A stretch of DNA of 64,000 nt, from contig JAJZPQ010000008.1 in the NCBI GenBank assembly GCA_021811085.1, forward strand, positions 18,498 to 82,497, in the 5' to 3' direction. The DNA is from Pseudomonadota bacterium (GTDB lineage Bacteria; Pseudomonadota; Gammaproteobacteria; Burkholderiales; SG8-39). Below, in pieces: positions 15,151-55,783 of this stretch. Each line of letters starts with the position of its first letter. The first letter of the stretch is position 1. The translations under genes and the position numbers were made by a program. The notes below the pieces were generated by a model that saw nothing but the letters and a program-made list of their open reading frames with translations, searched no databases and had not been told where the DNA came from.

Positions 15151-15403
15151 GGCCGCGTTAATTGGACATTTTTTGCCGCGGCCGCATGGTCCATGCTTGC
15201 TCCCTTCGGATACCGGATTTTAGCAACTATGGCAAGCTGCTTCCAGCCAAGAGGCCCTAATCAGCCGGCCTTATCAGCAAATCAAAATCTCTGGCTTGTG
15301 AGTGCGCCCGTCACTGCGCACAATGATCGCAATTTGCTGCCGCATGCCTGCGCGTCTGGCCTGCGGCCGGGCCATCAATCCAGTTCGAAAAAGAGGCAAG
15401 CCC

Positions 15404-16621: not shown

Positions 16622-16685
16622 TTGCAGGATTTGTTTGGTTTTAATTGTTGAACTTGATTTTGTTTCTTTCTAGGAGGTAGTAACG

Positions 16686-17150: not shown

Positions 17151-17272
17151 GGAACAGACCGTGGAGCGCCGGACGGGCTTTGCATCCGGCAGCCGCGCTT
17201 CGGGCCGAAATGTTTTTAACGGCAGAGGGCTACCGGGTTTAGCCCAAGCCGCATTGATAAAGGAAATCTGCA

Positions 17273-31457: not shown

Positions 31458-31475
31458 CGTCTTCCAGTCCTTAAA

Positions 31476-32120
31476 TCAGCTGCTGTAACCGCGCGGCTGC
31501 ACTGCGTAGCCGCGCCGGCGGGCTTCGATCTCATCGGCCTTTTTCAGCGCGCGCCGCAGGCCGTCCTTGTCCTTGCAGCCATGGCTCACGAACAGCTCCA
31601 GCGGGTTCAGGCGCTTGGCAAAGAACAGCCCGCGCCCGATATTGCGCAGCGTCCACATTTTCTTGATGCCGGAAACGAAGCCTTCGCGGAAGTAGACACT
31701 GATCGTCATCTTGAGTTCGTTCACGCGTCCGGTCTTGGTGCAGTTCTCCCAGAAAATCATGGAGAAGTCGCGTGTCGGCTGGTTCTTCGGCGCCAGGCCC
31801 AGGCGGTGCGCGTAGCTCGCGAGGCCATGCATGATATGGGTGATCGGCAGCTTGCGCGGGCAGCGCACCATGCAGTTGTAGCACGACGTGCATAACCACA
31901 TCGAATGCGAAGTCAGGACTTCCTCGCGCTTGCCGGCGCGGATCATCATGAAGATCTTCTGCGGCGTGTGCTCCCAATCCGGGCCGAAGGTGCAGGAGCC
32001 GGCGCATACGCCGCACTGCATGCACATTTTCACCCAGTCGCCGTCGTCGACTTTTTCCTCGACTTCGCGCAGGAAATTGTTGCGGTACTTGTCCAGCATC
32101 TGCGTGTTCAGGTCGCCCAT
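31476..32120 (-). CDS. hdrC: Heterodisulfide reductase subunit C-like 2x[4Fe-4S] protein
   Basis: Lower part of ORF 31476-32741; the start is ATG 32120 (MGDLNTQMLDKYRNNFLREV...). Cluster motifs are CMQCGVCAGSC and CTSCYNCMVRCP. It starts 2 nt after the qmoB stop. Confidence 0.85.
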   Translation of the reverse strand: MGDLNTQMLDKYRNNFLREVEEKVDDGDWVKMCMQCGVCAGSCTFGPDWEHTPQKIFMMIRAGKREEVLTSHSMWLCTSCYNCMVRCPRKLPITHIMHGLASYAHRLGLAPKNQPTRDFSMIFWENCTKTGRVNELKMTISVYFREGFVSGIKKMWTLRNIGRGLFFAKRLNPLELFVSHGCKDKDGLRRALKKADEIEARRRGYAVQPRGYSS

Positions 32121-32122
32121 GG

Positions 32123-34348: not shown

Positions 34349-34353
34349 TTGTG

Positions 34354-35637
34354 TTATGCCTCTGCTCTAGCTACTTTGTTGATGACTTGTATCGCGCGCA
34401 ACGCCGCCGCGGTGGAGCTTTGCACCGCGCGGTTCACGTCGAGCGCATTGGTGGCGCAGCCGGCGCCGAAGAATCCGGACTCCGCCGCCGAGGATTCGAT
34501 GAAGCCGCTCGAATCGGCGACGATCTCCGCCGGGATGTCCACGCCCGCCACGCTGGGCTGCATGCCGATCGCGAGCACCGCCATGTCGTGCGCATTGGCG
34601 TAGCGGTGGTAGCCTTCGGTGTCCACGCCGTGCAGGATCACGTCGCCCGATTTGTCCTGGGTGACTTTCGCCACCTTGGACTTGAGAAAGCTCACGCTCG
34701 GATCCCGCTGCACCTTCTGGTAGAAGTCCTCGAAGCGGTCGATGGCGCGGATGTCGATGTAATACACCGTGGATTTCGCCGCCTCGCCCCAGGCCTCTTT
34801 CACATACTGGGTCTGCTTGAGCGAAGCCATGCAGCAGATGCGCGAGCAATGGCGCAGATGGTTCTCGTCGCGCGAGCCGGCGCACTGGATGAAGGCGATG
34901 TTCTTCGCTTCCTTGCCGTCCGAGGGGCGCAGGATCTTGCCGCCGGTCGGTCCGTGGGGATCGGCGAGGCGCTCGAACTCGAGCGAGGTGATCACGTTGG
35001 CGAAACGGTCGTAGCCGTAGGGCTGGATTTTCGCCGCGTCGTAGGGCTGCCAGCCGGTGGCCCAGATCACCGCACCGGCCTTGATGGTGATCGTCTCCTC
35101 GCGCATCTCCAGATCGATCGCGCCGTATTTGCACGCGGCCTTGGCTTTATCGGCGTCGGCGGTGCCGATGACCGAGGCGTCGAGCACATAGCGCTGCGGA
35201 TAGGCCATCGCGTGCGGCAGGTAGGCGGCCTTCATTTTGTCCAGGCCGTAGTTGTATGGGTTGGGCACTTCGGCCGCTACCGCGCCGGCGCAGTCGCCGC
35301 AGGCGGTGCAATTCTCGTTGACGTAGCGCGGCGCGATTTTCACGGTCGCGCTGTAGTCGCCGCGTTTGCCCGAAATCGCGCTGACCTCGGCCAGCGTGAG
35401 CACGCGGATGTTGCGGTTGGCCTTGATCCGGCGCAGGTTGATTTCCAGGCCGCAAATCGGATGGCACAGCTTGGGGAAATAGCGGTACAAGAGCGCGGTG
35501 CGCCCGCCCAGCGTGGGGGATTTTTCCACCAGCACCACTTGTTTCCCGCATTCGGCGGCTTCGAGCGCGGCGGTCATGCCGCTGATGCCGCCGCCGACCA
35601 CGAGGATGGTCTGATTGGTTGCTACGACTTCAGTCAT
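34354..35637 (-). CDS. qmoA: Quinone-interacting membrane-bound oxidoreductase complex subunit A (HdrA-like flavoprotein)
   Basis: ORF 34354-35673; the likely start is ATG 35637 (MTEVVATNQTILVVGGGISGMTAALEAAECGK), preceded by GGAGGT. About 427 aa. Confidence 0.85.
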   Translation of the reverse strand: MTEVVATNQTILVVGGGISGMTAALEAAECGKQVVLVEKSPTLGGRTALLYRYFPKLCHPICGLEINLRRIKANRNIRVLTLAEVSAISGKRGDYSATVKIAPRYVNENCTACGDCAGAVAAEVPNPYNYGLDKMKAAYLPHAMAYPQRYVLDASVIGTADADKAKAACKYGAIDLEMREETITIKAGAVIWATGWQPYDAAKIQPYGYDRFANVITSLEFERLADPHGPTGGKILRPSDGKEAKNIAFIQCAGSRDENHLRHCSRICCMASLKQTQYVKEAWGEAAKSTVYYIDIRAIDRFEDFYQKVQRDPSVSFLKSKVAKVTQDKSGDVILHGVDTEGYHRYANAHDMAVLAIGMQPSVAGVDIPAEIVADSSGFIESSAAESGFFGAGCATNALDVNRAVQSSTAAALRAIQVINKVARAEA

Positions 35638-35816
35638 GCGTTTACCTCCGGCTCTGCTTTCTTTTATTCGCACGCGAATTTTAGCCGAGGCGTGCGCGAC
35701 TATCTACACGGCATGCAGTGCTTGCCCCCTGAATGTACTGATAGGCGGATAGACCATGTAAATCCGCTCTCGACCCGCGCTGATCCGGCTTGCGCGGCCG
35801 GCGTCCCGTCCGCGCG

Positions 35817-36780: not shown

Positions 36781-39720
36781 TTGCCGAACCCAACCGTGAC
36801 ACAAACAGCAGCAGCCGACTCCTCCGTCCGCAGCGAAGTCAAGCATACCACTTGCTACATGTGCGCATGCCGCTGCGGCATACGCGTGCACTTGCGCGAG
36901 GGCGAAGTGCGCTACATCGACGGCAATCCGGAACACCCGCTCAACCGCGGCGTGATCTGCGCCAAAGGTGCGTCGGGCATCATGAAGCAGTATTCGCCGG
37001 CCCGCCTGACCAGGCCCTTGATGCGCAAGCCCGGCTCGGCGCGCGGCGACAACCAGTTCGAAGAAGTCAGCTGGGACGAGGCGTTCAATCTGCTGCAGGA
37101 ACGCCTCGCGCGCATCCGCGCGACCGACCCGAAGAAATTTGCGCTGTTTACCGGCCGCGATCAAATGCAGGCGTTGACCGGCTTGTTCGCGCGCCAGTTC
37201 GGCACGCCCAATTACGCCGCGCATGGCGGTTTCTGCTCGGTCAACATGGCGGCGGGCATGATTTACACCATCGGCGGCTCGTTCTGGGAGTTCGGCGGCC
37301 CGGACTTGGAGCGCGCCAAGCTGTTCGTGATGATAGGCACGGCGGAGGACCATCATTCGAATCCGCTCAAGATCGCGATCTCCAAATTCAAGCGATCCGG
37401 CGGGCGCTTCATTTCGATCAACCCGGTGCGCACCGGCTATTCGGCCATCGCCGACGAGTGGGTGCCGATCAAGCCCGGCACCGACGGCGCGCTGCTGCTC
37501 GCGCTGACCCACGAAATCATCCACACCGGCCTCTACGACCGGGAATTCCTCGCGCGCTATACCAATGCGGGGTACTTGATCGACACCGATCCGACGTCGG
37601 AATCGCGCGGCATGCCGGTGCGCGATGCGAGCCGCCACGAAGAGATACCCGAATACCCGCGCAACATGCTTTGGTGGAACCGCCTGAGCGAACAGCCCGC
37701 ACCCTGCCACCAACCCGAGGCGGATCCCTATCTGCTCGGACAATTCACGCTCGCCGACGGCACGCCGGTCAAGCCGGCGTTCCAGTTGCTGCTCGAGCGG
37801 GTAAAGGATTACACGCCGGAATGGGCCGAGGGCATCACCGGCATACCCGCGGCGACCATACGCCGCCTCGCGCACGAAATGGGCGTGACCGCGCGCGACC
37901 AGAAGATCGAATTGCCGATCGCCTGGACCGACAGCTGGGGCACCGAGCACGAAAAGATCACCGGAAATCCGGTCGCGTTCCACGCGATGCGCGGTCTGGC
38001 GGCGCACTCCAACGGCTTTCAGACCATACGCGCGCTCGCGATCCTGATGAGCCTGCTCGGCACCATCGACCGGCCGGGCGGCTTTCGCCACAAGGCGCCA
38101 TTTCCGCGCGGCATCCCGCCGCTGGCGAAGACGCCCAAGGGCCCCGAGGGCGTACGGCCCGATACGCCGCTTGCCGGACTCGCGCTCGGCTGGCCGGGCA
38201 ATCCCGACGACCTATTCGTGGACGCCGACAACAAACCGGTGCGCATCGACAAGGCGTTTTCCTGGGAATACCCGCTGTCGGTGCATGGCCTGATGCACAA
38301 CGTAATCACGAATGCCTGGCGCGGCGATCCCTATCGCATCGACACGCTGATGATTTTCATGGCCAACATGGCGTGGAACTCGAGCATGAACACGATGGAA
38401 GTACGGCGCATGCTCAACGACCGGGACAAGAACGGCGACGGCGCCGGCGAATACAAGATTCCGTTCATCGTGGTGTGCGATGCGTTCCAGTCGGAAATGA
38501 CGGCGTTTGCCGACCTGATCCTTCCCGACACCACCTATCTCGAGCGCCACGACGTGATGTCCATGCTCGACCGGCCGATTTCGGAATTCGAAGGCCCGGT
38601 GGACTCGGTGCGCGTGCCGGTGCTGCCGCCTACGGGTGCGTGCAAGCCGTTTCAGGAAGTGCTGATCGAACTCGCCGGCAGATTGAAGCTGCCCGCGTTC
38701 GTCAACGCCGACGGCAGCCGCAAGTACCGCGACTACCCCGATTTCATCGTCAACTATGAAACCGAGCCCGGTTCCGGCATAGGCTTTCTCGCCGGCTGGC
38801 GCGGCAAGGGCGGGGAAAAGTTCATGCAGGGCGAGCCCAATCCGCGCCAATGGGAGATGTACGCCAAGAACAACTGCGTGTTCCAGCTCAAGCTGCCGCC
38901 TTCCTACCAGTACATGCGCAACTGGAACAAGGGCTATCACGAGTGGGCGCAGAGGACGCGTCTGCGCCGCCACGCCGATCCGATCGTGATCCAAATCTAT
39001 TCCGAGGTGCTGCAGAAATTCCGCATGGCGGCGCAGGGCAGGGGAACGTCGAAGCGGCGCCCGCCGGCGCATCTGGCAAAGCGCGTCGAAACCTATTTCG
39101 ATCCGCTGCCGTTCTATTACGAGCCGCTCGAAGCGCAGGCGACCGACACGCACAGGTACCCGCTGAACGCGATTACGCAGCGCCCGATGGCCATGTACCA
39201 CTCCTGGGACTCGCAGAACGCCTGGCTGCGCCAGATTCACGCGCACAACTATCTGTTCGTCAATCCGGCCGCGGCGCGCGCGCAGGGCATTGCCGACGAC
39301 GACTGGATCTGGGTCGAGTCGATGTGGGGCAAGGTGCGCTGCATGGCGCGCTACTCGGAGGCGGTGGAGCCGGGCACGGTGTGGACCTGGAATGCGATCG
39401 GCAAGGCGCCCGGCGCCTGGAACCTCGCGCCCGGCGCCAACGAAGCCGGGCTCGGCTTCCTGCTGAATCATCTGATCAGCGACGAACTGCCCCGCCCGGC
39501 GCAGGCGCGGGCGCAAGGCGCCGTTCCGGGAAGACCGCTGTCCAACTCCGACCCGGTAACCGGCCAGGCCGGCTGGTACGACGTGCGCGTGCGCATCTGC
39601 AAGGCAGGCGCAGACGAGGCCGAGCAGTCCTGGCCGCAGGTCGCCGCGGTTGGCGCCCTGCCGGGCATGGACCGGGTGCGCAACACCTGGCTCGCCTTCG
39701 TCGCCGGGAAGAAGAAATGA
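36781..39720 (+). CDS. soeA: Molybdopterin (bis-MGD) oxidoreductase catalytic subunit, SoeA-like cytoplasmic sulfite dehydrogenase
   Basis: 979 aa with the N-terminal FeS motif CYMCACRCG...VICAKG and no twin-arginine signal peptide. It is followed by a 4-cluster ferredoxin and an NrfD/DmsC-like membrane subunit. The start codon is uncertain (TTG 36781 or GTG 36796). Confidence 0.8.
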   Translation: MPNPTVTQTAAADSSVRSEVKHTTCYMCACRCGIRVHLREGEVRYIDGNPEHPLNRGVICAKGASGIMKQYSPARLTRPLMRKPGSARGDNQFEEVSWDEAFNLLQERLARIRATDPKKFALFTGRDQMQALTGLFARQFGTPNYAAHGGFCSVNMAAGMIYTIGGSFWEFGGPDLERAKLFVMIGTAEDHHSNPLKIAISKFKRSGGRFISINPVRTGYSAIADEWVPIKPGTDGALLLALTHEIIHTGLYDREFLARYTNAGYLIDTDPTSESRGMPVRDASRHEEIPEYPRNMLWWNRLSEQPAPCHQPEADPYLLGQFTLADGTPVKPAFQLLLERVKDYTPEWAEGITGIPAATIRRLAHEMGVTARDQKIELPIAWTDSWGTEHEKITGNPVAFHAMRGLAAHSNGFQTIRALAILMSLLGTIDRPGGFRHKAPFPRGIPPLAKTPKGPEGVRPDTPLAGLALGWPGNPDDLFVDADNKPVRIDKAFSWEYPLSVHGLMHNVITNAWRGDPYRIDTLMIFMANMAWNSSMNTMEVRRMLNDRDKNGDGAGEYKIPFIVVCDAFQSEMTAFADLILPDTTYLERHDVMSMLDRPISEFEGPVDSVRVPVLPPTGACKPFQEVLIELAGRLKLPAFVNADGSRKYRDYPDFIVNYETEPGSGIGFLAGWRGKGGEKFMQGEPNPRQWEMYAKNNCVFQLKLPPSYQYMRNWNKGYHEWAQRTRLRRHADPIVIQIYSEVLQKFRMAAQGRGTSKRRPPAHLAKRVETYFDPLPFYYEPLEAQATDTHRYPLNAITQRPMAMYHSWDSQNAWLRQIHAHNYLFVNPAAARAQGIADDDWIWVESMWGKVRCMARYSEAVEPGTVWTWNAIGKAPGAWNLAPGANEAGLGFLLNHLISDELPRPAQARAQGAVPGRPLSNSDPVTGQAGWYDVRVRICKAGADEAEQSWPQVAAVGALPGMDRVRNTWLAFVAGKKK

Positions 39721-40451
39721 GCAAGCAGCTCGCACTGGTGATCGACCTCAATGTCTGCGTCGGCTGCCATGCCTGCGTCACCAGCTGCAAGGAATGGAAC
39801 ACCTCGGGCGCGGCCGGTTTTCTTTCGGATGACCGTCCGTACGGCCGCGATCCGACCGGCACTTTTTTCAACCGCGTGCAGACATTCGAAGTGGGCGAGT
39901 TTCCCCATACGCAGACAGTGCATTTCCCCAAGTCCTGCCTGCACTGCGAGGACCCGCCCTGCGTGCCGGTGTGTCCCACGGGCGCGAGCTACAAGCGCGC
40001 CGAGGACGGCATCGTGCTGGTCGACTACGACAAGTGCATAGGCTGCAAGTACTGCAGCTGGGCCTGTCCCTACGGCGCGCGCGAGCTCGACGAGCACCAG
40101 AAGGTGATGAAGAAATGCACTCTGTGCGTGGACCGCATTTATGATGAGCACCTGCCTGCGGCGGAGCGCAAGCCCGCCTGCGTCATGGCCTGTCCCACCA
40201 GCGCGCGCCTGTTCGGCGACGTACACGACGCGGAGTCGGCGGTGTCGCGGGCGATACGCGACGCGGGCGGCTATGCGCTGATGCCCGAGTGGGGCACGCA
40301 CCCGGCCAACCACTACTTGCCGCGGCGCAAGACCGAGATCACGCTGCATCGCGACGAGCTCGAGCGCGTGGACAATCCGCTCAAGATCGACGGCAAGCTG
40401 CCCAAGCCCGACGTCAAAGCGCCGTCGCTCGACGACAGCACTACCTGGTAA
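39717..40451 (+). CDS. soeB: 4x[4Fe-4S] ferredoxin subunit, SoeB-like
   Basis: ATG 39717 overlaps the soeA stop (ATGA). MSKQLALVIDLNVCVGCHACVTSCKEWN..., CLHCEDPPCVPVCP, CIGCKYCSWACP, CTLCVDR...CVMACP. 244 aa. Confidence 0.87.
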   Translation: MSKQLALVIDLNVCVGCHACVTSCKEWNTSGAAGFLSDDRPYGRDPTGTFFNRVQTFEVGEFPHTQTVHFPKSCLHCEDPPCVPVCPTGASYKRAEDGIVLVDYDKCIGCKYCSWACPYGARELDEHQKVMKKCTLCVDRIYDEHLPAAERKPACVMACPTSARLFGDVHDAESAVSRAIRDAGGYALMPEWGTHPANHYLPRRKTEITLHRDELERVDNPLKIDGKLPKPDVKAPSLDDSTTW

Positions 40452-40456
40452 GCGCG

Positions 40457-41401
40457 ATGCGTCCTGCCTTCTCCGTTATTTTTCTCACCACGCTCATCGG
40501 CGCAGGGCAGGGCTTGTTCGTCGCGCTCTATTCGGCCGAGTTCGGTGCCTGGCTGAGTTTCTGGGCCATGCCCTCGGCGCAATACTTTTCGCTGGGCTGC
40601 GTGCTTGTCCTCGCGCTGCTTGGCGCAGGACTGTTCGCCTCGTTCTTCCATTTGGGCCGCCCCGAGCGCGCCTGGCGTTCGGCCGCGATGTGGCGCAACT
40701 CGTGGCTGTCGCGCGAGGTGATCGTGCTCCCTCTCTTCATGGCCGCGGTGGCGGCCTACGGCCTGGCGCATCATCTGCGCGGCGCGGGAGACTTGACCCT
40801 GACGCTCGGCGGCGCGGGCGTGGCGCTGGCGCTGCTGTTGTTCGTGTGCACCGGCATGATTTACGCCTGCCTGCCGTTTCTGCAGGAATGGCATACGCCG
40901 CTCACGGTGATCAACTACCTGCTGCTCGGCTGTGCCTCCGGTTTTCTGCTGAGCACGGCCTGGGCGGCGGTGCAGGCGCCCGCGCTGTTGGTGACTGCGG
41001 CCGCATGGACCGCCGGAGTCACGCTGGTTGCCCTGGTAATGCGCGGCGCCGCGCTCGTGCGCGATGCAAGCCTGCGGCCGAAGTCGACACTGCAAACGGC
41101 CATCGGCGTGAAGCACCCGCGCATCGCGCAGAAGGCGCAGGGTTTCATGGGCGGATCGTTCAATACGCGCGACTTCTTTCATGGGAAGTCGTTTGCCTGG
41201 CTGCGCCTGGTGAAATGGGGATTCCTGCTGCTGGTGTTCCCGCTGCCGCTGGCGCTGCTCGCGGGGGGGGCGGCCTTGGCATCCTGGCCGGTATTGGCGG
41301 CGGCTTTCCTGCTGCAGTACCTGGGCCTGCTGATCGAGCGCTGGTTCTTTTTCGCGCAAGCGCGGCACCCGCAGAACCTTTACTATCAGGCCATATCCTG
41401 A
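40457..41401 (+). CDS. soeC: NrfD/DmsC-type integral membrane anchor, SoeC-like
   Basis: In-frame ATG 40457 within ORF 40289-41401 (MRPAFSVIFLTTLIGAGQGLFVALY...). About 314 aa, multi-TM, 5 nt after the soeB stop. Confidence 0.8.
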   Translation: MRPAFSVIFLTTLIGAGQGLFVALYSAEFGAWLSFWAMPSAQYFSLGCVLVLALLGAGLFASFFHLGRPERAWRSAAMWRNSWLSREVIVLPLFMAAVAAYGLAHHLRGAGDLTLTLGGAGVALALLLFVCTGMIYACLPFLQEWHTPLTVINYLLLGCASGFLLSTAWAAVQAPALLVTAAAWTAGVTLVALVMRGAALVRDASLRPKSTLQTAIGVKHPRIAQKAQGFMGGSFNTRDFFHGKSFAWLRLVKWGFLLLVFPLPLALLAGGAALASWPVLAAAFLLQYLGLLIERWFFFAQARHPQNLYYQAIS

Positions 41402-41469: not shown

Positions 41470-41697
41470 ATGAATTTCGATAAAGACCTGGACGCACGCG
41501 GCTTGAACTGCCCGCTGCCGATATTGCGCGCGAAAAAGGCGCTGACCGAGATGCAAAGCGGCCAGGTGCTGCGCATTGTTTCGACCGACGTCGGATCGGT
41601 CAAGGATTTCCAGGCTTTCTGCAAGCAGACCGGCAACGAACTGCTGTCGCAAGCCGAGGCGAGCAACGAGTACACCTTCTTTCTCAAGCGTAAGTGA
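41470..41697 (+). CDS. tusA: Sulfur carrier protein TusA
   Basis: 75 aa: LDARGLNCPLPILRAKKAL (CPxP active-site Cys) ...VLRIVSTDVGSVKDFQAFCKQTGNELL. It starts 68 nt after soeC. Confidence 0.87.
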   Translation: MNFDKDLDARGLNCPLPILRAKKALTEMQSGQVLRIVSTDVGSVKDFQAFCKQTGNELLSQAEASNEYTFFLKRK

Positions 41698-41966
41698 CCG
41701 GCGCAGCTGCTGCGGCCGCGCGGGACGCGGTCGCCAGGTGAGAATTGGTATTACTGCTGGTTCGAACAGTCCTTATTATGGATTGCTAAATCCCTAGCCC
41801 CGGCGTAGTCTTTTTCGATGAATTCGCAGCGCGCCGCCACAGCCGATCCAGGGCTGCGGCAGCGGGCGAAACTGCAGCCTGCGGTGGATAGAAGGGCGAC
41901 TTAGCCCCGCCACCGCTGTCATCGCTGGTGTCGAAACCTCGTTCGACTTCGTCTGGAGGAGTGGCC

Positions 41967-42359
41967 GTGGCAGCACGAAAGATCTGCGTGGTAGTGGTTT
42001 CCGGAACCCGCGAGCGCCTGCAAATGGCGGCCATGGCGGCCTCAGTGGCCGCCGTGAGCGGCATCGAAGTCACCATATTTCTATCCATGAACGCGGTGCC
42101 GCATTTCGTCAAAGGCGCCACGGCCGATGCGCCCAGCGAGGGCGCTTTCGGCGACCTTCTGGTAAAAAAGAAGGCGCCGGATTTCAAGACGCTGTTCCGG
42201 CAAGCGGTCGAACTGGGCGGCGCGAAGATCCTGCCCTGCTCCATGGCGCTGGACATCGCCGGCATCGAGACCGACACGCTGGAGCCGTTCGTGGGCGAGC
42301 CGACCGGGCTAACTGCGTTCCTGAACGCGGCCGCAGATGCCCAGGTCTGGACTTTCTGA
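41967..42359 (+). CDS. DsrE/DsrF-fold sulfurtransferase, DsrE3-like (soluble)
   Basis: ORF 41928-42359; the likely start is GTG 41967, 6 nt after GGAGGA ((M)AARKICVVVVSGTRERLQMA...). The conserved active-site Cys lies in AKILPCSMALD. Confidence 0.7.
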   Translation: MAARKICVVVVSGTRERLQMAAMAASVAAVSGIEVTIFLSMNAVPHFVKGATADAPSEGAFGDLLVKKKAPDFKTLFRQAVELGGAKILPCSMALDIAGIETDTLEPFVGEPTGLTAFLNAAADAQVWTF

Positions 42360-42370
42360 GAGTTTGTTTG

Positions 42371-42394
42371 AGCATGAGGGGATACGCCCCTTCA
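42371..42394 (+). repeat. Copy C of the AGCATGAGGGG hairpin element
   Basis: AGCATGAGGGG-ATACG-CCCCTTCA between the dsrE3-like and second tusA-like genes. It shares an identical 11-mer with copies at 55733 (+) and 50446 (-). Confidence 0.5.
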
Positions 42395-42464
42395 CGCTCG
42401 TCTAAACCAGGGCCATTTCGGTCAAGCCGAGATGGCCTGCAAATCGAACCGAGGAGATGCAACC

Positions 42465-42695
42465 ATGGCGGAAAAGAAAATCATCGATGGCCGGGGCAGC
42501 TTCTGCCCGGGCCCGCTGATGGAATTGATCGGCGTGCTGAAAATGTCGCAGATCGGCGACGAGCTCGAGGTCTTGTCCAACGACAAGGGCTCGGCCAAAG
42601 ACATTCCGGAGTGGGTGCGCAAAGTGGGCCACGAGCACGTGTCGACGACCGAAGAGGCGGGCGTCTGGCATATAACGGTGAGGAAAACCAAGTAG
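42465..42695 (+). CDS. TusA-family sulfurtransferase (second copy)
   Basis: ORF 42432-42695; the likely start is ATG 42465 after GAGGAG (MAEKKIIDGRGSFCPGPLMELIGVLK...). It has a CPxP-type Cys (CPGP). Confidence 0.8.
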   Translation: MAEKKIIDGRGSFCPGPLMELIGVLKMSQIGDELEVLSNDKGSAKDIPEWVRKVGHEHVSTTEEAGVWHITVRKTK

Positions 42696-47840: not shown

Positions 47841-48467
47841 CTACCAGTAGGCGAGCAGGCGGCCTTTGTCCACTTTCGCTTCGAAGCGCTTCAGCGGCTG
47901 GGTTCCCTTCTTCACGCAGGCGCCGCTAGTCAGATCGAACGCCCACTTGTGCTTAGGGCAGGTCAGCTCCAGCCCCTCGAGCGCGAGGTGCGGGATGTTC
48001 GTGACCTGATGCGGGCAGCGGCTGTCGTAGACGCGATAGGTCTTGCCCTTGCGGTAGACGAACAGGCTGCGCCCGTCGCAGTCGAGCCGCGTGGCCTCAC
48101 CGTCCGTGATCTGCGCGGCCGGCGCTACGTCGTGCCAGCGCGCAGCGCTGCCGATGTTCTCGGGACGGAACTCGGGCAGGTCGAGCGCGAGAATGACGTC
48201 CACCGCCCACACGATCTTGGCCAGCCCCAGCGCCGGGAATGCCATCATCAGCGCATCGAGCACCTCCATCGGGCTCGCCCCGTCGCGCAGCGCGCGCAGC
48301 AGGTACTGGCGCAGGCCGTTTTCGGTCTGGGAGTGGACTTTGGTAATGACCGAGATCAGCGCCCGCGTCTTGGGGTCGAGATGTTTACCGGCCTCCTTGA
48401 GGAACTTGAAGTAGTGGGAGATCGCATCCGGCCGCACCTTGACCAGATAATTCAGAGCGTCGCTCAT
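47841..48467 (-). CDS. Fusion protein: carboxymuconolactone decarboxylase/AhpD-like domain + Rieske [2Fe-2S] domain
   Basis: 208 aa. The N-terminal half resembles the CMD family (DPKTRALISVITKVHSQTENGLRQYLLRAL...). The C-terminal half has the Rieske motifs CPHQ...CPKHKW. Confidence 0.72.
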   Translation of the reverse strand: MSDALNYLVKVRPDAISHYFKFLKEAGKHLDPKTRALISVITKVHSQTENGLRQYLLRALRDGASPMEVLDALMMAFPALGLAKIVWAVDVILALDLPEFRPENIGSAARWHDVAPAAQITDGEATRLDCDGRSLFVYRKGKTYRVYDSRCPHQVTNIPHLALEGLELTCPKHKWAFDLTSGACVKKGTQPLKRFEAKVDKGRLLAYW

Positions 48468-48500: not shown

Positions 48501-49394
48501 TCATTTTACGCGCTGGTAGTAGCGCGCGCGGTAGATCAGGCGACGATGCTGCGCCGAGTCGGTGAACGGCATGCGCGTGTGCAGTACGTTGTTGCTGATG
48601 AGGCCCATGCCCGGCTCCAGCCGACCGCGCAATACCCAGGGCGAAGCGCCGCCGAGGATGTCTTCGAGTGCGGCCAGCGCCGCCTGCGTGGCCGCGTCCT
48701 GCTTCCACTCGATGCTGACTGCGCGCGCGGTGTAGCGCATGTGCAAATAGCCGCCGGCATCGATCGAAAACACGGGACCGGATTGTGCCGCCCGCTCCAC
48801 GCGGCCTTGCTCGATGCGCGCCGGAACGGTCATGGCATCGGGCGCCATCAGCGCGCGCAGGTGCTGCGGATCGCGGTCGCGCAACTGGATGTAGGCGATT
48901 TCGTGATCGAGCAGCTCGTTCTCGCCGCCGGTCTCGGCGCGCTCGACGCAGTGCAGCAGCACCGCGCGCACGGTGCGCTCGCGGGGGTTGTAGTAGCCGT
49001 CGGTATGCCACTTGATGCCGCGATTGGTATAAGGGATGAATTCGCCGCGCGTGCCGTGTTGCGCGACCGCCAGCGGCGAAATGCCGTCGTCGTCGGCCAG
49101 CAAGTTCGGATCGAGGTCGCGCAATCCGAACTGCAGGCCCAGTTGCCGCGGAATGTCCTTGTCCGGCCTGCCCCCGGTCGGACTTGCGTAGACCGCCATG
49201 TTGGCGCGCCGGCAGCGTTCGAGCAGTGCCTGCCGCTCACCCTTGCTGAGCGAGCGCGGGTCGCGCACTTCAACCACGAGCTCGGCCAGCGTTGCCGGAA
49301 AATGGGCGAGCTTTTCGGCGCGCCAGGCCAGATACGCGGCTTCGTCGGCGAGATCGAACGCCGCGCCCGCCGGCACATTCATGCGCGCGTTCAT
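48501..49394 (-). CDS. TauD/TfdA-family Fe(II)/2-oxoglutarate-dependent dioxygenase-like protein
   Basis: 297 aa with the HxD metal motif in WHTDGYY and a distal His in NNVLHTR. Its start overlaps the stop of the upstream ORF (ATGA). Confidence 0.72.
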   Translation of the reverse strand: MNARMNVPAGAAFDLADEAAYLAWRAEKLAHFPATLAELVVEVRDPRSLSKGERQALLERCRRANMAVYASPTGGRPDKDIPRQLGLQFGLRDLDPNLLADDDGISPLAVAQHGTRGEFIPYTNRGIKWHTDGYYNPRERTVRAVLLHCVERAETGGENELLDHEIAYIQLRDRDPQHLRALMAPDAMTVPARIEQGRVERAAQSGPVFSIDAGGYLHMRYTARAVSIEWKQDAATQAALAALEDILGGASPWVLRGRLEPGMGLISNNVLHTRMPFTDSAQHRRLIYRARYYQRVK

Positions 49395-49951
49395 TCGCCG
49401 ATGTGGCTCTCGCGCCGCGGCCGGTGCTCTTCGTCGGCGGGCGCGAACAGACCTTCGAGCGTGCGCTCCAGCGCCTTCACCGCTTCAGGGGCTTCGATCT
49501 CCATGATCTGATCGATCACCCAGGCATGATCCTTCTCCGGGACGATTTCCAGCAGCCGGCTGCCGAAATAGCGGCGAAAGCCGAAATCGGGGCCCTCTTT
49601 TTCGTCGTAGGCGAAATCGGCGTATTCGCCGCCGCGCTGGTTGGCGAGGTCTATGAAATGGCGGCGGCAGCGGTCGGGCTCGGGTTCGACCGGCAGCATG
49701 TCGCGGTTGTCCTCTACCACCTCCGCCAGCTTCAGTGCGAGCGCGGTGGTGAACGCGATGCGCTGGTCGGCGGCGAGTGCCCGATAGGCGATGCGGTCGG
49801 CCGCGTGCAGCATGAACGCGAGGTACTCGCACACGAAATCGAAGTACTGCGTGCCGACGTCGATGTCGAATTGCGCCGCGCGCATGCGCCGGATCGCATC
49901 CTGCGACAGCTTCCAGCCGAGCATGGCGATGACGCTGGCCAGCTCGGGCAT
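49391..49951 (-). CDS. Hypothetical protein (186 aa; up to 203 aa if the start is 50002)
   Basis: ORF 49391-50002; the candidate start is ATG 49951 (MPELASVIAMLGWKLSQDAIRRMRAAQFDIDVGTQYFDFVCEYLAF...). I recognised no family. Confidence 0.5.
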   Translation of the reverse strand: MPELASVIAMLGWKLSQDAIRRMRAAQFDIDVGTQYFDFVCEYLAFMLHAADRIAYRALAADQRIAFTTALALKLAEVVEDNRDMLPVEPEPDRCRRHFIDLANQRGGEYADFAYDEKEGPDFGFRRYFGSRLLEIVPEKDHAWVIDQIMEIEAPEAVKALERTLEGLFAPADEEHRPRRESHIGE

Positions 49952-50028
49952 GGTGCGTTCGCCTGCTCCCCGGTGGAAGCGGCTGCGGATGCGGATGGCC
50001 AAGGTGCCCTGCTAGCGGGTGCGGCGCA

Positions 50029-50358
50029 CTAATATCCGCCCTTGCCGAACGGTTTGGGCAGGCCTGCGACGCGCGCGCCCTGTTTGGCCGGTCCGAGCGG
50101 GAACAGATCATATAGCGCCTTGCTGTCGCAGCCCGGCATCAGGTCGGCGATATCTTTGAGCATGTTGCGGAAATTCGGCGTCTGGCCGTGCTCTTTATAC
50201 TGGTCGCGCAGGTATTGCACGACTTTCCAGTGATCGTCGTTCAGCGTGATGCCTTCGGCCTGCGCGATAACGCGCACGGTCTCTTCGCTGTATTCGGGCG
50301 CGAGCAGATAGCCTTCCGCATCGGTTTCCAGTTCCGCGCCGTTCACCACATAAGCCAT
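50029..50358 (-). CDS. DsrC/TusE-fold protein lacking both conserved C-terminal cysteines
   Basis: 109 aa with DsrC-family blocks (LNDDHWKVVQYLRDQYKEHGQTPNFRNMLK, LFPLGPAKQGARVAGLPKP). It ends ...FGKGGY, so both CysA and CysB are absent. Confidence 0.8.
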   Translation of the reverse strand: MAYVVNGAELETDAEGYLLAPEYSEETVRVIAQAEGITLNDDHWKVVQYLRDQYKEHGQTPNFRNMLKDIADLMPGCDSKALYDLFPLGPAKQGARVAGLPKPFGKGGY

Positions 50359-50413
50359 GTTGCGATCCTCCGTTGCTGGTCAGTCGGCCGGTTCCCCCGA
50401 CCTCCAGGAGCTT

Positions 50414-50446
50414 ATTTCGAAACGAGGGGATCTATCCCCTCATGCT
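50414..50446 (-). repeat. Copy B of the AGCATGAGGGG hairpin element
   Basis: The minus-strand reading is AGCATGAGGGGATAGATCCCCTCGTTTCGAAAT, with stem GAGGGGAT/ATCCCCTC. It begins 4 nt after the tandem-TusA stop. Confidence 0.5.
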
Positions 50447-50450
50447 CCCG

Positions 50451-50945
50451 CTAAGTCTTGCGAATGAAGAACTCGTAGGTCCCCGGTGCCACTTCCTGCT
50501 TGGCGAGCAACTGGAGACCGGTCGATTTCACCCATGAATTGACGTCGTCGGGCGAGCCGGGGCAGTTGCTCATCAGGAGCAGGATTTCCCCCGCTTTCAT
50601 TCCGTCGAGCAACTTTTTGGCCTCGATGATCGGCCCGGGACAGCTGACACCGCGTATGTCCAGCCTCACATTGGCCACCGGACGTTTCGCGCCGCTGCCG
50701 CGTTTGATCGTGTATGCCACCCTGCGTCCGCCCAGCCGGTCGGTGCCGATCACCTCGTTGCCGGTGTGGCGGCTCCACGCGAACAGGTCGTCGGGCGTAC
50801 CCGGACAGTCCGATATCAGCTGCATCACCTGCCCCGGCTGCAGATCGTCGATCACATGCTTCGCGCCGAGCAGCGGCGCCGGGCAATTCAGCCCGCACAA
50901 ATCCAGCGTGACCAGGGGTTTGTCTGAATTCCTTTCCGCGCTCAT
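50451..50945 (-). CDS. Protein with two tandem TusA-like domains
   Basis: ORF 50451-50996; the likely start is ATG 50945 (MSAERNSDKPLVTLDLCGLNCPAPLLGAKHVI...). The second domain is VRLDIRGVSCPGPIIEAKKLL. Both domains keep the CPxP cysteine. Confidence 0.8.
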   Translation of the reverse strand: MSAERNSDKPLVTLDLCGLNCPAPLLGAKHVIDDLQPGQVMQLISDCPGTPDDLFAWSRHTGNEVIGTDRLGGRRVAYTIKRGSGAKRPVANVRLDIRGVSCPGPIIEAKKLLDGMKAGEILLLMSNCPGSPDDVNSWVKSTGLQLLAKQEVAPGTYEFFIRKT

Positions 50946-50995: not shown

Positions 50996-51589
50996 TCAGG
51001 AGCCTACTGCTGCGGCCGATTTGTGCGGAACGAAAATTCCGCAGCCGTACTTGCGTCCGTTGCCCAGTCCCGACGCCTGCATCCTGAGCGAATCCTCGGG
51101 CGAGAGCTCATGCAGCATCAGGCTGAAACCGACGATCTCCGCTCCTTGTGTCTGCGCGCGGCGCATGTTGCCGCAAACCACCTTGCATCCTACGCTGGCG
51201 CTTTGCAGCTCTGCGCTGACGTCGCGCTGGAACCGAGCCTCATCCGGCGTCGCCGTCGTGACGAACTGCGAATACAGGGTGCCGTGGGCAAACAACGGCC
51301 GCACCTGCGCACTGCCTACCTCGACGCTGTCGCCCAGATCGAGGCGCGCGCCCGAGAGCGCAAACGACTGTTCCACCCGCTTGCGCGGCAAGCGCAGCAT
51401 GAGCCGCGCGCGGGTGCCGAGGTGGACCTCGCCTGCGACCGCGCGCGCGCCGCGGATCGGGTGTACGCCGGCGTCGGGCTCAGCCGCGAGCCAGTCGAGC
51501 CGTTCGCTCAGAAGCCGGAACAGATTCCAGCCGTGATCCGCGGGTATGCTACCACCGCGCAGCGCAAACGCCACATCGACCATGTCCAT
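50996..51589 (-). CDS. Cas6/Cmx6-like RAMP-fold protein (orphan; no CRISPR context)
   Basis: 197 aa. The C-terminal glycine-rich loop GLGNGRKYGCG fits G-h-G-x5-G-h-G of Cas6-type RAMPs. The N-terminus MDMVDVAFALRGGSIPADHGWNLF resembles my memory of the type I-MYXAN Cas6/Cmx6 family. This needs HMM or structural confirmation. Confidence 0.55.
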   Translation of the reverse strand: MDMVDVAFALRGGSIPADHGWNLFRLLSERLDWLAAEPDAGVHPIRGARAVAGEVHLGTRARLMLRLPRKRVEQSFALSGARLDLGDSVEVGSAQVRPLFAHGTLYSQFVTTATPDEARFQRDVSAELQSASVGCKVVCGNMRRAQTQGAEIVGFSLMLHELSPEDSLRMQASGLGNGRKYGCGIFVPHKSAAAVGS

Positions 51590-51592
51590 CTG

Positions 51593-51811
51593 TCAGCTGT
51601 TCTCCTGCGTCTGGGACCAGGCGAGCATCGCCTGCCCCCAGCGCGCAGCGGTATCCGGATCGATCTCGAAAATGGTAAAACGGGCGCCGCGCTCGCGGAT
51701 CCGCAGGCGCAACAGCGGCATGCCCCCGGACTCGTATTCGACCTGCACCAATTCCACCTGCTGGCCTCCGAACGGGCAGGTGAACTTGTCCAGACTCCGG
51801 GTCGTGTCCAT
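51593..51811 (-). CDS. Small hypothetical protein (72 aa), translationally coupled to the Cas6-like gene
   Basis: MDTTRSLDKFTCPFGGQQVELVQVEYESGGMPLLRLRIRERGARFTIFEIDPDTAARWGQAMLAWSQTQENS. GGAG lies 8 nt upstream of the ATG. Its stop is 3 nt before the next start. Confidence 0.5.
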   Translation of the reverse strand: MDTTRSLDKFTCPFGGQQVELVQVEYESGGMPLLRLRIRERGARFTIFEIDPDTAARWGQAMLAWSQTQENS

Positions 51812-52046
51812 GCCATGCGCTCCGCTCGATGCTGGCAGGCACTATCGCACCCGGCGCATGCCATGCAAATCACCGACTTGGATAAGGTGCGGATACTCCC
51901 TTCGGGTAGGTGCAGCATTACCCGTGAGAGTGTGCACGCCCCCCTGCACGAGTAATGGTTGAGCAGGGCGGCGCCATTTAGTATCGTCAAAAAAAAGGCG
52001 CTCCTAAGCCGAGCAAATTGCTTTTTTCCTGAATGGAGGAACACAG

Positions 52047-53342
52047 ATGGCGAAAAAACCGCATGACACGCCCAACCTGGACGCGCTCGAATCAGGCCCG
52101 TGGCCGAGTTTCGTTACCGGTCTCAAGCGTCTGGCCAAGGACAAAGACTCCGTAGTCGACCTCCTCGGTCATCTGGAACATTCGTATGCGACGAGAAAGG
52201 GTTATTGGAAAGGCGGAACGCTAGGCGTCTACGGCTATGGCGGCGGCGTCATCCCGCGCTTTACCGAGATCAAGGACGAGAACGGCAAGCCGGTGTTCCC
52301 GGACGCGGCGGAATTCCATACTCTGCGCGTCATGCCGCCCGCAGGCATGCATTACAGCACCGACATCCTGCGCAAGCTCGCAGACATCTGGGAACGGCAC
52401 GGTTCCGGGCTGATCGCCTTCCATGGCCAGTCGGGCGACATCATGTTCCAGGGCGCGACCAGCGAGAACGTACAGAAGGCCTTCGACGAGATCAACGAAG
52501 CCGGCTTCGACCTCGGCGGAGCGGGCCCCGCGCTGCGCACCTCCATGTCCTGCGTCGGCGCGGCGCGCTGCGAGCAGTCCTGCTACGACGAGGGCAAGGC
52601 GCATCGCATGGTGATCAACAGCTTCCTCGACGACATCCACCGTCCGGCGCTGCCGTACAAGTTCAAGTTCAAGTTCTCGGGCTGCCCCAACGACTGCATG
52701 AACTCGATCCAGCGCTCCGATCTGGCAGTCATCGGCACCTGGCGCGACAACATACGCACCGACGAGGCGCTGGCGAAGAAGTGGTTTGCCAAGCACGGCA
52801 TGAACGAGCTCGTGAACGACGTGGTCGCGCACTGCCCGACCAGGGCAATCCAGCTGAAAGAAATCAAGGAAGTGCGCAAGGACGCCGCCGTGTCTGCGGT
52901 CGCGGTGAACGACACGCACGCCCTGGAGATCGACAACCGCGACTGCGTGCGCTGCATGCACTGCATCAACGTGATGACCGGTGCGCTGGCGCCGGGCAAG
53001 GACAAGGGCGCGACGATCCTCTGCGGCGGCAAGCGCACGCTGAAGATCGGCGACCAGATGGGCACCGTGGTGGTGCCGTTCCAGCCGCTGCAGAACGAAG
53101 AAGATTACGAGCAGATCGTCGAACTGGGGCAGAAGATCATCGACTTCTTCGCCGAGAACGCGCTCGAACACGAGCGCACCGGCGAGATGATCGAACGTAT
53201 CGGTCTGGCCAACTTCCTCGAGGGGATCGGCCTCGACGTGGACGCCAACATGGTGAAAGCGCCGCGCTCCAACCCGTACGTCCGCACCGATGGCTGGGAC
53301 GAGGAAGTGGCCAAGATCAAGGCCAAGAAGGCAGCCGCCTAG
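52047..53342 (+). CDS. dsrA: Dissimilatory sulfite reductase alpha subunit (oxidative/reverse type context)
   Basis: 431 aa: GPWPSFVTGLKRLA..., the siroheme/FeS motif region SMSCVGAARCEQSC, CPNDC, and a ferredoxin insert CVRCMHC. RBS GGAGG. It is followed by dsrB and dsrEFH. Confidence 0.95.
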   Translation: MAKKPHDTPNLDALESGPWPSFVTGLKRLAKDKDSVVDLLGHLEHSYATRKGYWKGGTLGVYGYGGGVIPRFTEIKDENGKPVFPDAAEFHTLRVMPPAGMHYSTDILRKLADIWERHGSGLIAFHGQSGDIMFQGATSENVQKAFDEINEAGFDLGGAGPALRTSMSCVGAARCEQSCYDEGKAHRMVINSFLDDIHRPALPYKFKFKFSGCPNDCMNSIQRSDLAVIGTWRDNIRTDEALAKKWFAKHGMNELVNDVVAHCPTRAIQLKEIKEVRKDAAVSAVAVNDTHALEIDNRDCVRCMHCINVMTGALAPGKDKGATILCGGKRTLKIGDQMGTVVVPFQPLQNEEDYEQIVELGQKIIDFFAENALEHERTGEMIERIGLANFLEGIGLDVDANMVKAPRSNPYVRTDGWDEEVAKIKAKKAAA

Positions 53343-53377
53343 AGTCGGCCCACCTACAGCATGCCTGGAGATAAATA

Positions 53378-54460
53378 ATGGCTGAACCACAAAAGCAGAT
53401 GCGCAAGCCCAAGGAAACCGGGGTTCCGGACAACAAGCAATACATGCATCCGACCCTGGTGAAGAATCACGGCAACTGGAAATACCACGACCGGCCGCGC
53501 CCCGGCGTGCTGCACCACGTGTCGCACTCGGGGGACCAGGTGTGGACGGTGCGCGCAGGCACGCAGCGCCAGATGGATGTGCACACCATCAGGAAGCTGT
53601 GCGACATCGGCGATCAATACGCCGAGGGTCACGTGCGCTTTACCATCCGCTCCAACATCGAGTTCATGGTCGCCGACGAGAAAAAAGTTGCGCCCCTGAT
53701 CGAGACGCTGGAGAAAAACGGCTTTCCGGTGGGCGGCACCGGCAACTCGGTGTCGATGATGGCGCACACGCAGGGCTGGCTGCACTGCGACATCCCCGGC
53801 ACCGACGCCTCGGGCGTGGTGAAGGCGCTGATGGACGAACTGTACGACGAGTTCAGGCGCGAGGAAATGCCCAACCGCGTGCACATGTCGACCTCCTGCT
53901 GCGAGATCAACTGCGGCGGCCAGGCGGACATCGCCATTATCGTGCAGTACACCAAGCCGCCCAAGATCAACCACGATCTGGTCGCGAACGTGTGCGAGCG
54001 GCCGTCGGTCGTGGCGCGCTGCCCGGTGGCGGCGATCCGGCCGGCGCTGGTGAACGGCAAGCCTTCGCTCGAGATCGACGAGAAGAAATGCATGTGCTGC
54101 GGCGCCTGTTATCCGCCGTGCCCGCCGATGCAGATCAACGATCCCGAGCACACCAAGCTCGCGATCTGGGTGGGCGGCAAGAACTCCAACGCCCGCGGCA
54201 GGCCGACGTTCATGAAAATGGTCGCTTCCGGACTGCCGAACAACCCGCCGCGCTGGCCCGAAGTGGCCGCCGTGGTGAAGAAGATTCTGCACGTCTACAA
54301 GGAGGACGCGCGCTCGTGGGAACGCCTGTCCGACTGGGTCGAGCGCATCGGCTGGCCGCGCTTTTTCGAGAAGACCGGGCTGACGTTCACCAAGTATCTG
54401 ATTGACGACTGGCGCGGCAGCCGCGCCAATCTGAACGCGTCGACGCATATCAGGTTCTAG
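53378..54460 (+). CDS. dsrB: Dissimilatory sulfite reductase beta subunit
   Basis: 360 aa: HGNWKYHDRPRPGVLHHVS..., CCEINCGGQ, and a ferredoxin domain CMCCGACYPPCP. Confidence 0.95.
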   Translation: MAEPQKQMRKPKETGVPDNKQYMHPTLVKNHGNWKYHDRPRPGVLHHVSHSGDQVWTVRAGTQRQMDVHTIRKLCDIGDQYAEGHVRFTIRSNIEFMVADEKKVAPLIETLEKNGFPVGGTGNSVSMMAHTQGWLHCDIPGTDASGVVKALMDELYDEFRREEMPNRVHMSTSCCEINCGGQADIAIIVQYTKPPKINHDLVANVCERPSVVARCPVAAIRPALVNGKPSLEIDEKKCMCCGACYPPCPPMQINDPEHTKLAIWVGGKNSNARGRPTFMKMVASGLPNNPPRWPEVAAVVKKILHVYKEDARSWERLSDWVERIGWPRFFEKTGLTFTKYLIDDWRGSRANLNASTHIRF

Positions 54461-54484: not shown

Positions 54485-54549
54485 GGGAAGGGGTGGGACC
54501 CTTCCCTTCCCACCCGGGGCCACTTGTCCCGCGAGGGGACTTCCCCGCG
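54485..54549 (+). promoter_or_regulatory. Two GC-rich hairpins in the 147-nt dsrB-dsrE spacer
   Basis: GGGAAGGG-GTGGGA-CCCTTCCC (54485-54506) and CGCGAGGGGA-CT-TCCCCGCG with one bulge (54530-54549). Confidence 0.4.
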
Positions 54550-55676: not shown

Positions 55677-55732
55677 TCGGAGCCAATCTGGACCGCGATA
55701 GCGCAGTTGACGCGAGCGGGTGGGGTTGGGGA

Positions 55733-55765
55733 AGCATGAGGGGCACCATCCCCTCATTTTGAAAC
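55733..55765 (+). repeat. Copy A of the AGCATGAGGGG hairpin element (dsrH-dsrC spacer)
   Basis: AGCATGAGGGGCACCATCCCCTCATTTTGAAAC, with stem ATGAGGGG/CCCCTCAT (55736-55757) followed by TTTT. It ends 18 nt before the dsrC ATG. A TTGACG hexamer lies at 55707-55712. Confidence 0.5.
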
Positions 55766-55783
55766 GAGTTCAAAGGAGCGCAT

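Follow-up and report, generated by a model that had tools for sequence, protein, structure and literature searches.

We analyzed a stretch of 64,000 nucleotides (referred to below as the window) of contig JAJZPQ010000008.1 from a Pseudomonadota bacterium assigned to the Burkholderiales lineage SG8-39 (assembly GCA_021811085.1, positions 18,498 to 82,497 of the forward strand). The element under study is a pair of minus-strand genes that lies head to head with dsrA: an open reading frame (ORF) of 197 amino acids related to Cas6, the RNA-processing protein of CRISPR systems, and a 72-amino-acid ORF upstream of it. The ORF list of the window confirmed both genes where the first-pass annotation, a model's reading of the letters, had placed them, together with their divergence from dsrA, whose start at 52047 (plus strand) lies 235 bp away from the 72-amino-acid ORF (Table 1). 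The TGA stop codon of the shorter gene is followed by three nucleotides (CAG) and then by the ATG codon of the longer one. NIR_SIR and NIR_SIR_ferr domains and the downstream DsrE, DsrH and DsrC genes are present in syntenic contigs.

Profile searches showed that the 197-amino-acid protein is a true full-length homologue of the Cas6/Cmx6 family, as had been proposed. It matched Pfam PF09559 over profile positions 1-191 of 191 (E 3.1e-53, 181 bits against a cutoff of 26.7), NCBIfam TIGR02807 with 153.1 bits (trusted cutoff 98.85) and the PADLOC Cas6 models with E 1e-53. The sole solved structure reached by sequence was 8fcj_B, the Cas6 protein of a type I-B CRISPR-associated transposon Cascade (E 1.3e-17). 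An AlphaFold2 model (predicted local distance difference test score, pLDDT, 84.2; predicted template modeling (TM) score 0.78) was compared with the Protein Data Bank using Foldseek, and the proposed similarity to Cas6 was recovered at the level of structure as well: the top match was 8fcu_B, also Cas6 of a type I-B CRISPR-transposon Cascade (E 2.6e-16, TM 0.70), and the next matches were archaeal Cas6 and Cse3/Cas6e structures (5yi6, 3i4h, 3pkm and Cse3). According to the model, the protein consists of two tandem ferredoxin-like (RRM/RAMP) domains.

The glycine-rich C-terminal loop of Cas6, which the annotation had recognized, is intact (GLGNGRKYGCG, residues 174-184). In an alignment of dsr-linked with CRISPR-linked members of the family, positions G176 and G184 do not vary, and conservation is 90% or more at G174 and C183; residues common to both groups are D5, F8, G12, G-x-H43-P44-I, R66, F120 and Q171, followed by the loop G174-x-G176...R179...C183-G184-x-F186-x-P188. 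Compared with Cas6/Cmx6 of type I-MYXAN and I-B systems, including the CRISPR-transposon Cas6 proteins 8fcj and 8fcu, the window protein is homologous over its full length (25-29% identity to cyanobacterial members) and shares the two-domain RAMP fold, the N-terminal (V/L)D(V/L)xFxLxG and GxHPI motifs and the C-terminal GxGxxRKxxCGxFVP motif. It differs from them in that it, like the rest of the dsr-linked group, lacks an insertion of ~11 residues that CRISPR-linked proteins have before the GF(S/G) strand, carries a C-terminal tail of its own, PHKSxxAVG (PHKSAAAVG in the window), and has a small partner protein; its gene differs in being fixed beside dsrAB and in having no array and no cas8/devT, cas7, cas5 or cas3 neighbors. 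The ratio of nonsynonymous to synonymous substitution rates (dN/dS) is 0.12-0.27 for the Cas6-like gene and 0.04-0.17 for its partner; both genes are under purifying selection.

The Cas6-like protein has more than 1000 close relatives and falls among 1285 clusters at 50% identity. In a scan of one genome per GTDB species, 365 species contained a relative bearing the GCG[ILM]FVPHK motif, and the best 80 of these 365 loci were fetched. The counts given below are for 100 loci, which leave out the window and its identical copies and include several metagenome loci that are near-duplicates; flanks of at most 10 kb per relative were examined. In 94 of the 100 loci, dsrA lies no more than 3 kb upstream of the Cas6 homologue; five contigs were too short to tell, and there was one exception. 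The linkage of homologues to sulfur genes anticipated by the annotation thus holds. DUF6967, the family of the 72-amino-acid protein, is encoded upstream of the homologue in 93 loci, and downstream there are genes for a DsrC-like protein (91 loci), TusA (68), a conserved protein of ~200 amino acids (87) and a TauD-like protein (73). Searches with the window proteins (tblastn) revealed the same arrangement in essentially all fetched loci, with dsrB-dsrA on one strand and, on the other, the genes for DUF6967, the Cas6-like protein, (TusA), the DsrC-like protein, the ~200-amino-acid protein and the TauD-like protein. The best 80 loci came from Burkholderiales sensu lato, namely Rhodocyclaceae, Sulfuritalea, Sulfurisoma, Thiobacillus, Sulfuricella, Gallionellaceae, Hydrogenophilaceae and Rubrivivax-, Ideonella- and Hydrogenophaga-type metagenome bins. 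The dsr-linked gene is also carried by complete genomes, among them AP021857.1 (Ca. Desulfobacillus denitrificans) and CP070661.1.

The arrangement is unchanged in a distant subclade of 14 metagenome loci with 32-39% identity. Three more divergent representatives also adjoin dsrA, with the gene order shuffled or the set reduced: in L102, dsrBA is followed by cas6, a gene for a 64-amino-acid protein and a homologue of the ~200-amino-acid protein; in L105, dsrA is followed by the TauD-like gene, which here lies upstream of cas6, by a gene for a 61-amino-acid DUF6967-like protein that overlaps cas6, and by the DsrC-like gene; in L107, the order is dsrA, DUF6967, cas6. The dsr linkage therefore spans several orders and holds down to ~33% Cas6 identity and despite reshuffling of the genes. 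In the exceptional locus, L078 from a bin labeled Gemmatimonadales, the Cas6 homologue (8748-9272) is matched from residue 23 on and is followed by tusA and the genes for the DsrC-like, the ~200-amino-acid and the TauD-like proteins, with neither dsrA nor DUF6967 in the 8.7 kb upstream; it may represent a rearrangement or a mis-binned contig. We conclude that a Cas6-like/DUF6967 module stands divergent from dsrAB in sulfur-oxidizing Betaproteobacteria and in some Gammaproteobacteria.

The absence of CRISPR components from the window, also claimed by the annotation, was borne out. The window was annotated from Pfam results and from translations read in part by eye, with the profile scan covering some of the genes. 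A repeat search and a k-mer scan of the 64 kb detected no interspaced direct repeats or repeat-spacer array, no Rfam family reached its gathering threshold, and the 197-amino-acid ORF was the only defense-model match in a PADLOC scan of unassigned window proteins. No cas8(devT), cas7 or cas5 neighbors, nor cas3, cas1, cas2 or cas4, were found in the window by Pfam, PADLOC or inspection of translations. Likewise, tblastn retrieved no homologue of Cas1, Cas2, Cas3, Cas4, Cas5, Cas7, Cas8/DevT, Cas10 or Cmr3 in 1.49 Mb of sequence from 105 dsr-type sources, the window included. An array scan of 85 loci (L001-L085; L088-L107 lay outside it) flagged two, L047, a three-copy repeat that was not inspected, and L056. 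The L056 candidate (4225-4700) was rejected as an array; it consists of six tandem copies of an 82-nt GC-rich unit with no spacers and lies within a dsr operon, that of a betaproteobacterial genome from a metagenome.

In the positive-control loci L086, L087 and L104, cas neighbor genes and arrays were found. The two cyanobacterial relatives are type I-B CRISPR-associated transposon loci (L086, 8456-14335; L087, 8435-14400) of the layout tniQ / cas6-devT(cas8)-cas7-cas5 with 3-5 repeats per array, and a type III-B (cmr) cassette comes directly after the type I-B locus in L087. Another family representative, P0257, lies in the context cas2-cas4/cas1 / cas6-cas3-devT-cas7-cas5. CRISPR-linked relatives, from cyanobacteria and one metagenome, thus have ordinary cas6-cas8-cas7-cas5 operons with arrays, and no DUF6967 partner was present in the three such loci examined. 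The window protein belongs to the Cas6/Cmx6 family but stands, at the level of the locus, outside any CRISPR-Cas system, since neither cas neighbors nor an array was found. As judged from flanks of up to 10 kb, the gene is CRISPR-independent, and we regard its exaptation for a CRISPR-independent function as very likely.

The partner protein matched PF22295 (DUF6967) with E 2.2e-27 (95.1 bits, cutoff 27). All of its homologues are small, have a single domain and carry the annotation "hypothetical". The AlphaFold2 model (pLDDT 92) contains four beta strands followed by a C-terminal helix, and the nearest folds retrieved by Foldseek were PUR-alpha repeats, Burkholderia PC4-like protein (e.g., BPSL1147) and Whirly proteins, which are like DUF6967 in having four strands and one helix and in their similar size. 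Proteins of these three kinds bind single-stranded DNA or RNA, and PC4, PUR and Whirly are promoter-associated single-stranded DNA binders. Since identity is 9-18% and E values are 0.3-0.9, this is a resemblance for which homology is undemonstrated. The annotation had also described the pair as translationally coupled. The 3-nt gap is real in the window genome; the coupling is not conserved, for in relatives the two genes are adjacent at distances that vary from an overlap to ~175 nt. Some of the apparent gaps are probably coding N-terminal extensions.

The control region between DUF6967 and dsrA contains a palindrome, CTACCC-GAAG-GGAGTA (51894-51909, minus strand), ~98 nt upstream of the DUF6967 start. 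At least 62 related loci have a palindrome of the form CTACCC-N4-GG(N)GTA, always in the DUF6967-sense orientation and located upstream of the DUF6967 start by ~90-110 nt; a distant subclade has the variant TAACCC-N4-GGGTAA. Ahead of the palindrome stands another GGGTAAT/GGAGTAG copy, and conserved blocks flank it on both sides, CCATTACTCG upstream and CGGTGAT and TGCGATAGT downstream; a conserved -10-like TGnGATAGT follows ~50 nt downstream. Extra copies of the element were found upstream of tusA-type operons in L036 and L054. A scan of the control region for sigma-70 promoters gave no hits. The spacer was also considered as a structured RNA and rejected, as RNAalifold yielded essentially no consensus structure and no difference was detected between the folding energies of the sense and antisense strands (Wilcoxon p 0.35). 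The palindrome is probably an operator of the sulfur regulon, whichever protein binds it.

A different repeated element, a hairpin of the form AGCAUGAGGGG-loop-CCCCUCAU with a NUUGAAAY tail, has three copies in the window, all in sense orientation and all in intergenic spacers of sulfur genes (Table 1). The pattern GAGGGG-N3-8-CCCCTC occurred twice where 0.01 occurrences were expected, and compensatory stem changes are seen across the ten copies in the alignment from which the covariance model, R1, was built. In six of six related species of the window's clade, the hairpin lies directly upstream of cas6, between DUF6967 and cas6, and in clade relatives it is preceded there by a terminator-like hairpin, GAGGCCATTTC...GAAATGGCCTC; both have been lost from the window genome, which brought the genes to their 3-nt distance. 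Cleavage by Cas6 leaves an 8-nt AUUGAAAC/G tag on many CRISPR RNAs (crRNAs), and the NUUGAAAY tail resembles that tag. The hairpins matched neither CRISPR-DR nor any other family in Rfam.

Three more general roles for the hairpins were tried and rejected. The hairpin upstream of dsrC is not a universal Cas6 site, being present in the window's clade only; elsewhere the dsrH-dsrC spacer is short and unstructured. No hairpin between DUF6967 and cas6 was found outside that clade, so none is family-wide. Nor are the hairpins the repeats used by this Cas6 family, since the repeats of the cyanobacterial type I-B transposons (GTGATTCATGGCTTCATGCCGTTAGGCGTTGCTCAA) are unlike them. The hairpin family is absent from more distant dsr-Cas6 loci and hence cannot be the general partner of the protein.

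The remaining genes of the module are listed in Table 1. The DsrC paralogue lacks both C-terminal cysteines, and its KGGY ending is also seen in the DsrC-like protein of the distant gammaproteobacterial locus L105 (3241-3579); these two features define it as a distinct DsrC subfamily unable to carry sulfur. The ~200-amino-acid protein had no match in Pfam, NCBIfam, PADLOC or PHROGs, and its homologue in L102 was recognized at 27% identity (E 7e-19); it represents an uncharacterized family tied to dsr. The fusion of CMD and Rieske domains is encoded by the last gene of the operon and is found in the window's own clade only, with synteny seen in close relatives alone.

Table 1. Coordinates of the dsr-linked module, the dsr genes and the hairpin copies in the window
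Feature	Position	Strand	Support or remark
Cas6/Cmx6-family protein, 197 aa, dsr-linked subfamily	50996..51589	-	ends ...SGLGNGRKYGCGIFVPHKSAAAVGS
DUF6967 protein, 72 aa, conserved upstream partner of the Cas6-like gene	51593..51811	-	PF22295
Divergent control region DUF6967/dsrA, conserved blocks including the palindrome	51812..52046	.	palindrome in 62+ related loci
dsrA (52047-53342), dsrB (53378-54460), then dsrEFHCMKL	52047..54460	+	ORFs
Tandem TusA-domain sulfur carrier, CPxP cysteine kept in both domains	50451..50945	-	PF01206 E 2.7e-37, two stretches; 164-aa gene call in identical contigs
DsrC/TusE-family paralogue, both C-terminal cysteines missing, C-terminal GKGGY	50029..50358	-	PF04358 E 3.3e-32
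Conserved protein of ~190-200 aa, no family assignment	49391..50002	-	87/100 loci
TauD/TfdA-family Fe(II)/2-oxoglutarate dioxygenase homologue	48501..49394	-	PF02668 E 6e-19
CMD (AhpD-like) + Rieske fusion protein	47841..48467	-	PF00355, PF02627
Hairpin copy 1, tail UUUGAAAC, between dsrH and dsrC	55728..55768	+	covariance model R1, 51.6 bits
Hairpin copy 2, tail UUCGAAAU, between tusA and the DsrC-like gene	50411..50451	-	covariance model R1, 48.7 bits
Hairpin copy 3, more divergent, between dsrE2 and tusA	42366..42406	+	covariance model R1, 33.7 bits

We consider that the Cas6-like protein is best read as a domesticated Cas6 that binds nucleic acid and works, with DUF6967, in a dsr-linked accessory or regulatory module. 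As to its target, we tentatively favor an RNA-level mechanism as a real possibility, since Cas6 proteins bind RNA hairpins, the loop and the basic residues are kept, and the hairpins of the window's clade sit where differential processing of a polycistronic mRNA would matter. The Cas6-like protein would still bind structured RNA, as Cas6 does the repeat hairpin, and DUF6967 would help to hold the flanking strand. The pair could then act post-transcriptionally on sulfur-oxidation mRNAs, by processing, stabilizing or occluding them, with the outcome that the amounts of DsrC and TusA-type carriers would be tuned relative to DsrAB. Candidate sites in the window's lineage would be the NUUGAAAY-tailed hairpins upstream of dsrC, the DsrC-like gene, tusA and, in relatives, cas6. 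A more specific form of the idea, which we hold to be doubtful, is an array-less, CRISPR-independent ribonucleoprotein system in which the Cas6-like protein and DUF6967 would cleave or clamp solo-repeat-like hairpins upstream of dsrC, tusA and cas6, and possibly CUACCC-N4-GGGUAG, and so set the stoichiometry of Dsr and the sulfur relay.

Several observations weigh against such an RNA-level mechanism. No RNA element conserved across the whole dsr-linked subfamily was found, and matches to the hairpin covariance model are confined to the window's own clade. The palindrome is the one non-coding element shared family-wide; pair counting detected no covariation in it, which is due to the invariance of its 5′ arm, and the conserved blocks would place it upstream of the module promoter, near -67. 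His43 (GVHPI) is the only candidate catalytic histidine common to the window protein and the CRISPR-transposon Cas6, and roughly half of 150 family representatives, the dsr-linked P0230 subclade among them, have a hydrophobic residue in its place; judging from the alignment, either His43 would not be the catalytic residue or cleavage would be dispensable in many lineages. The ~11-residue insertion of the CRISPR-linked proteins is missing, the other module genes are of sulfur-carrier and oxygenase types with no RNA enzymes among them, and the Foldseek values that connect DUF6967 with nucleic-acid-binding folds are weak (E 0.3-0.9, query TM 0.54-0.64, identity 9-18%, probability 0.9-1.0).

Some of the same observations are accounted for by a protein-level accessory factor that would have kept the double ferredoxin-like fold and lost nucleic-acid binding. 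In a step of sulfur transfer or modification by which DsrAB is fed or protected, it would scaffold or chaperone the cysteine-less DsrC-like protein, TusA, the ~200-amino-acid protein and the TauD-like protein. The constancy of the DsrC-like, TusA, TauD-like and ~200-amino-acid neighbors even where their order is shuffled, the dispensability of His43 in many members, the tail and lost insertion specific to the subfamily, and the search that gave no conserved RNA partner all agree with it. However, family members show hardly any variation in the glycine-rich loop or in several arginines that characterize RNA-binding Cas6, DUF6967 resembles nucleic-acid-binding folds, and we know of no precedent for a Cas6 fold as a protein-only scaffold; we judge this explanation unlikely. 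If nucleic acid is bound, it might instead be DNA, with the Cas6-like protein, DUF6967 or both recognizing GGAGTAG...CCTACCC-N4-GGAGTA in the shared control region, possibly as melted or hairpin DNA, and regulating both divergent operons. In at least 62 loci the element and the gene pair occur together, its distance from the DUF6967 start being fixed at ~90-110 nt, its variant persists in the most distant subclade, extra copies precede tusA-type operons in L036 and L054, the -10-like TGnGATAGT would put it near -67, its folding has no strand bias, as would be expected of a DNA element, and the promoter-associated PC4, PUR and Whirly proteins are the folds that DUF6967 resembles. Yet Cas6 proteins, so far as known, are specific for RNA, and the element would be explained just as well by a sulfur-regulon transcription factor unrelated to the pair or by the DsrC-like paralogue. 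DNA-level regulation by the pair appears rather unlikely.

Two explanations remain. An ordinary Cas6 might process crRNA in trans for a CRISPR-Cas system that is encoded at another place in the genome and has no cas6 of its own, for example of type III; type III systems often borrow Cas6, and the DNA examined amounts to 64 kb of the window genome and at most 10 kb of flank per relative. Such service to a distant locus is nevertheless very improbable given the fixed synteny with dsr across several orders (94 of 100 loci, down to 33% identity), the lack of cas genes in the 1.49 Mb of flanks and of arrays in the loci scanned, and the indel and C-terminal tail that set the subfamily apart from CRISPR-linked relatives; CRISPR-Cas loci are patchy and mobile, and real family members sit within cas operons. 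That the gene is left over from a vanished CRISPR-Cas locus and decaying, or is an annotation artifact, is suggested by its orphan status alone. The full-length ORF matching 191 of 191 profile positions, the dN/dS of 0.12-0.27 and the conservation in hundreds of species leave that explanation with next to no probability.

That transposons and plasmids recruit Cas components is already known. As in CRISPR-associated transposons, type IV systems and Cas6-RT-Cas1 fusions, a Cas protein or module is here under selection outside canonical adaptive immunity. Those systems keep a guide RNA and an array and serve mobile elements or plasmid competition, whereas the window contains a lone, array-less Cas6 in a chromosomal energy-metabolism locus, which seems to have recruited this part of an immune system. 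If a Cas6 has become a fixed part of a chromosomal operon for central energy metabolism, and this in hundreds of sulfur oxidizers that abound in the environment, its recruitment would differ in kind from that by transposons and plasmids and would point to an unrecognized level at which the reverse-Dsr pathway is controlled or assembled. Should the ribonucleoprotein system described above prove real, no Cas6 endoribonuclease before it would have been domesticated for the housekeeping, post-transcriptional regulation of a core energy pathway.

Accessory proteins of dsr expression have a precedent: in Allochromatium vinosum, DsrR, DsrS and DsrC regulate dsr expression (work of the Dahl laboratory), in part, it has been proposed, post-transcriptionally, and DsrC-type proteins have a helix-turn-helix-like motif. 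Like the pair, these are accessory proteins encoded with the dsr genes and proposed to affect their expression; they have folds unrelated to those of the pair, which is seen in betaproteobacterial and some gammaproteobacterial metagenome lineages, divergent from dsrA. The annotation's author was not aware of such a role for Cas6, and a literature search agreed, finding no paper that ties Cas6 to dsr or sulfur oxidation or that mentions DUF6967; most subscription journals lay outside the search, so that novelty is unproven. In databases the protein carries the automatic label "type I-MYXAN CRISPR-associated protein Cas6/Cmx6", by which CRISPR-Cas counts in metagenome surveys of such bacteria are inflated. 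The module (DUF6967, the Cas6-like, cysteine-less DsrC and TauD-like proteins and the ~200-amino-acid protein) is a gene set that can be tested in cultivable carrier genera such as Thiobacillus, Sulfuritalea, Sulfurisoma and Sulfuricella.

Besides the pair, the window contains efflux genes at one end, sat-aprBA, qmo/hdr-like genes, soeA, soeC, tusA-dsrE2-tusA and dsrABEFHCMKL. The sulfur-oxidation genes outside the dsr cluster form an island (15302-19183, 30546-35673, 36781-41401 and 41470-42695) with sat-aprBA, qmo/hdr-like genes, a soeA/soeC-type molybdoenzyme and tusA-dsrE2-tusA, all within 40 kb of dsr; these assignments were made partly by eye. In the spacer between dsrB and dsrE, right after the dsrB stop codon, there is a 13-bp inverted repeat, GGGAAGGGGTGGG/CCCTTCCCTTCCC (54485-54511, plus strand), with a sub-threshold Rfam match to RAGATH-31 (E 0.04) that is probably due to chance; the repeat may form a stabilizing or attenuating hairpin.

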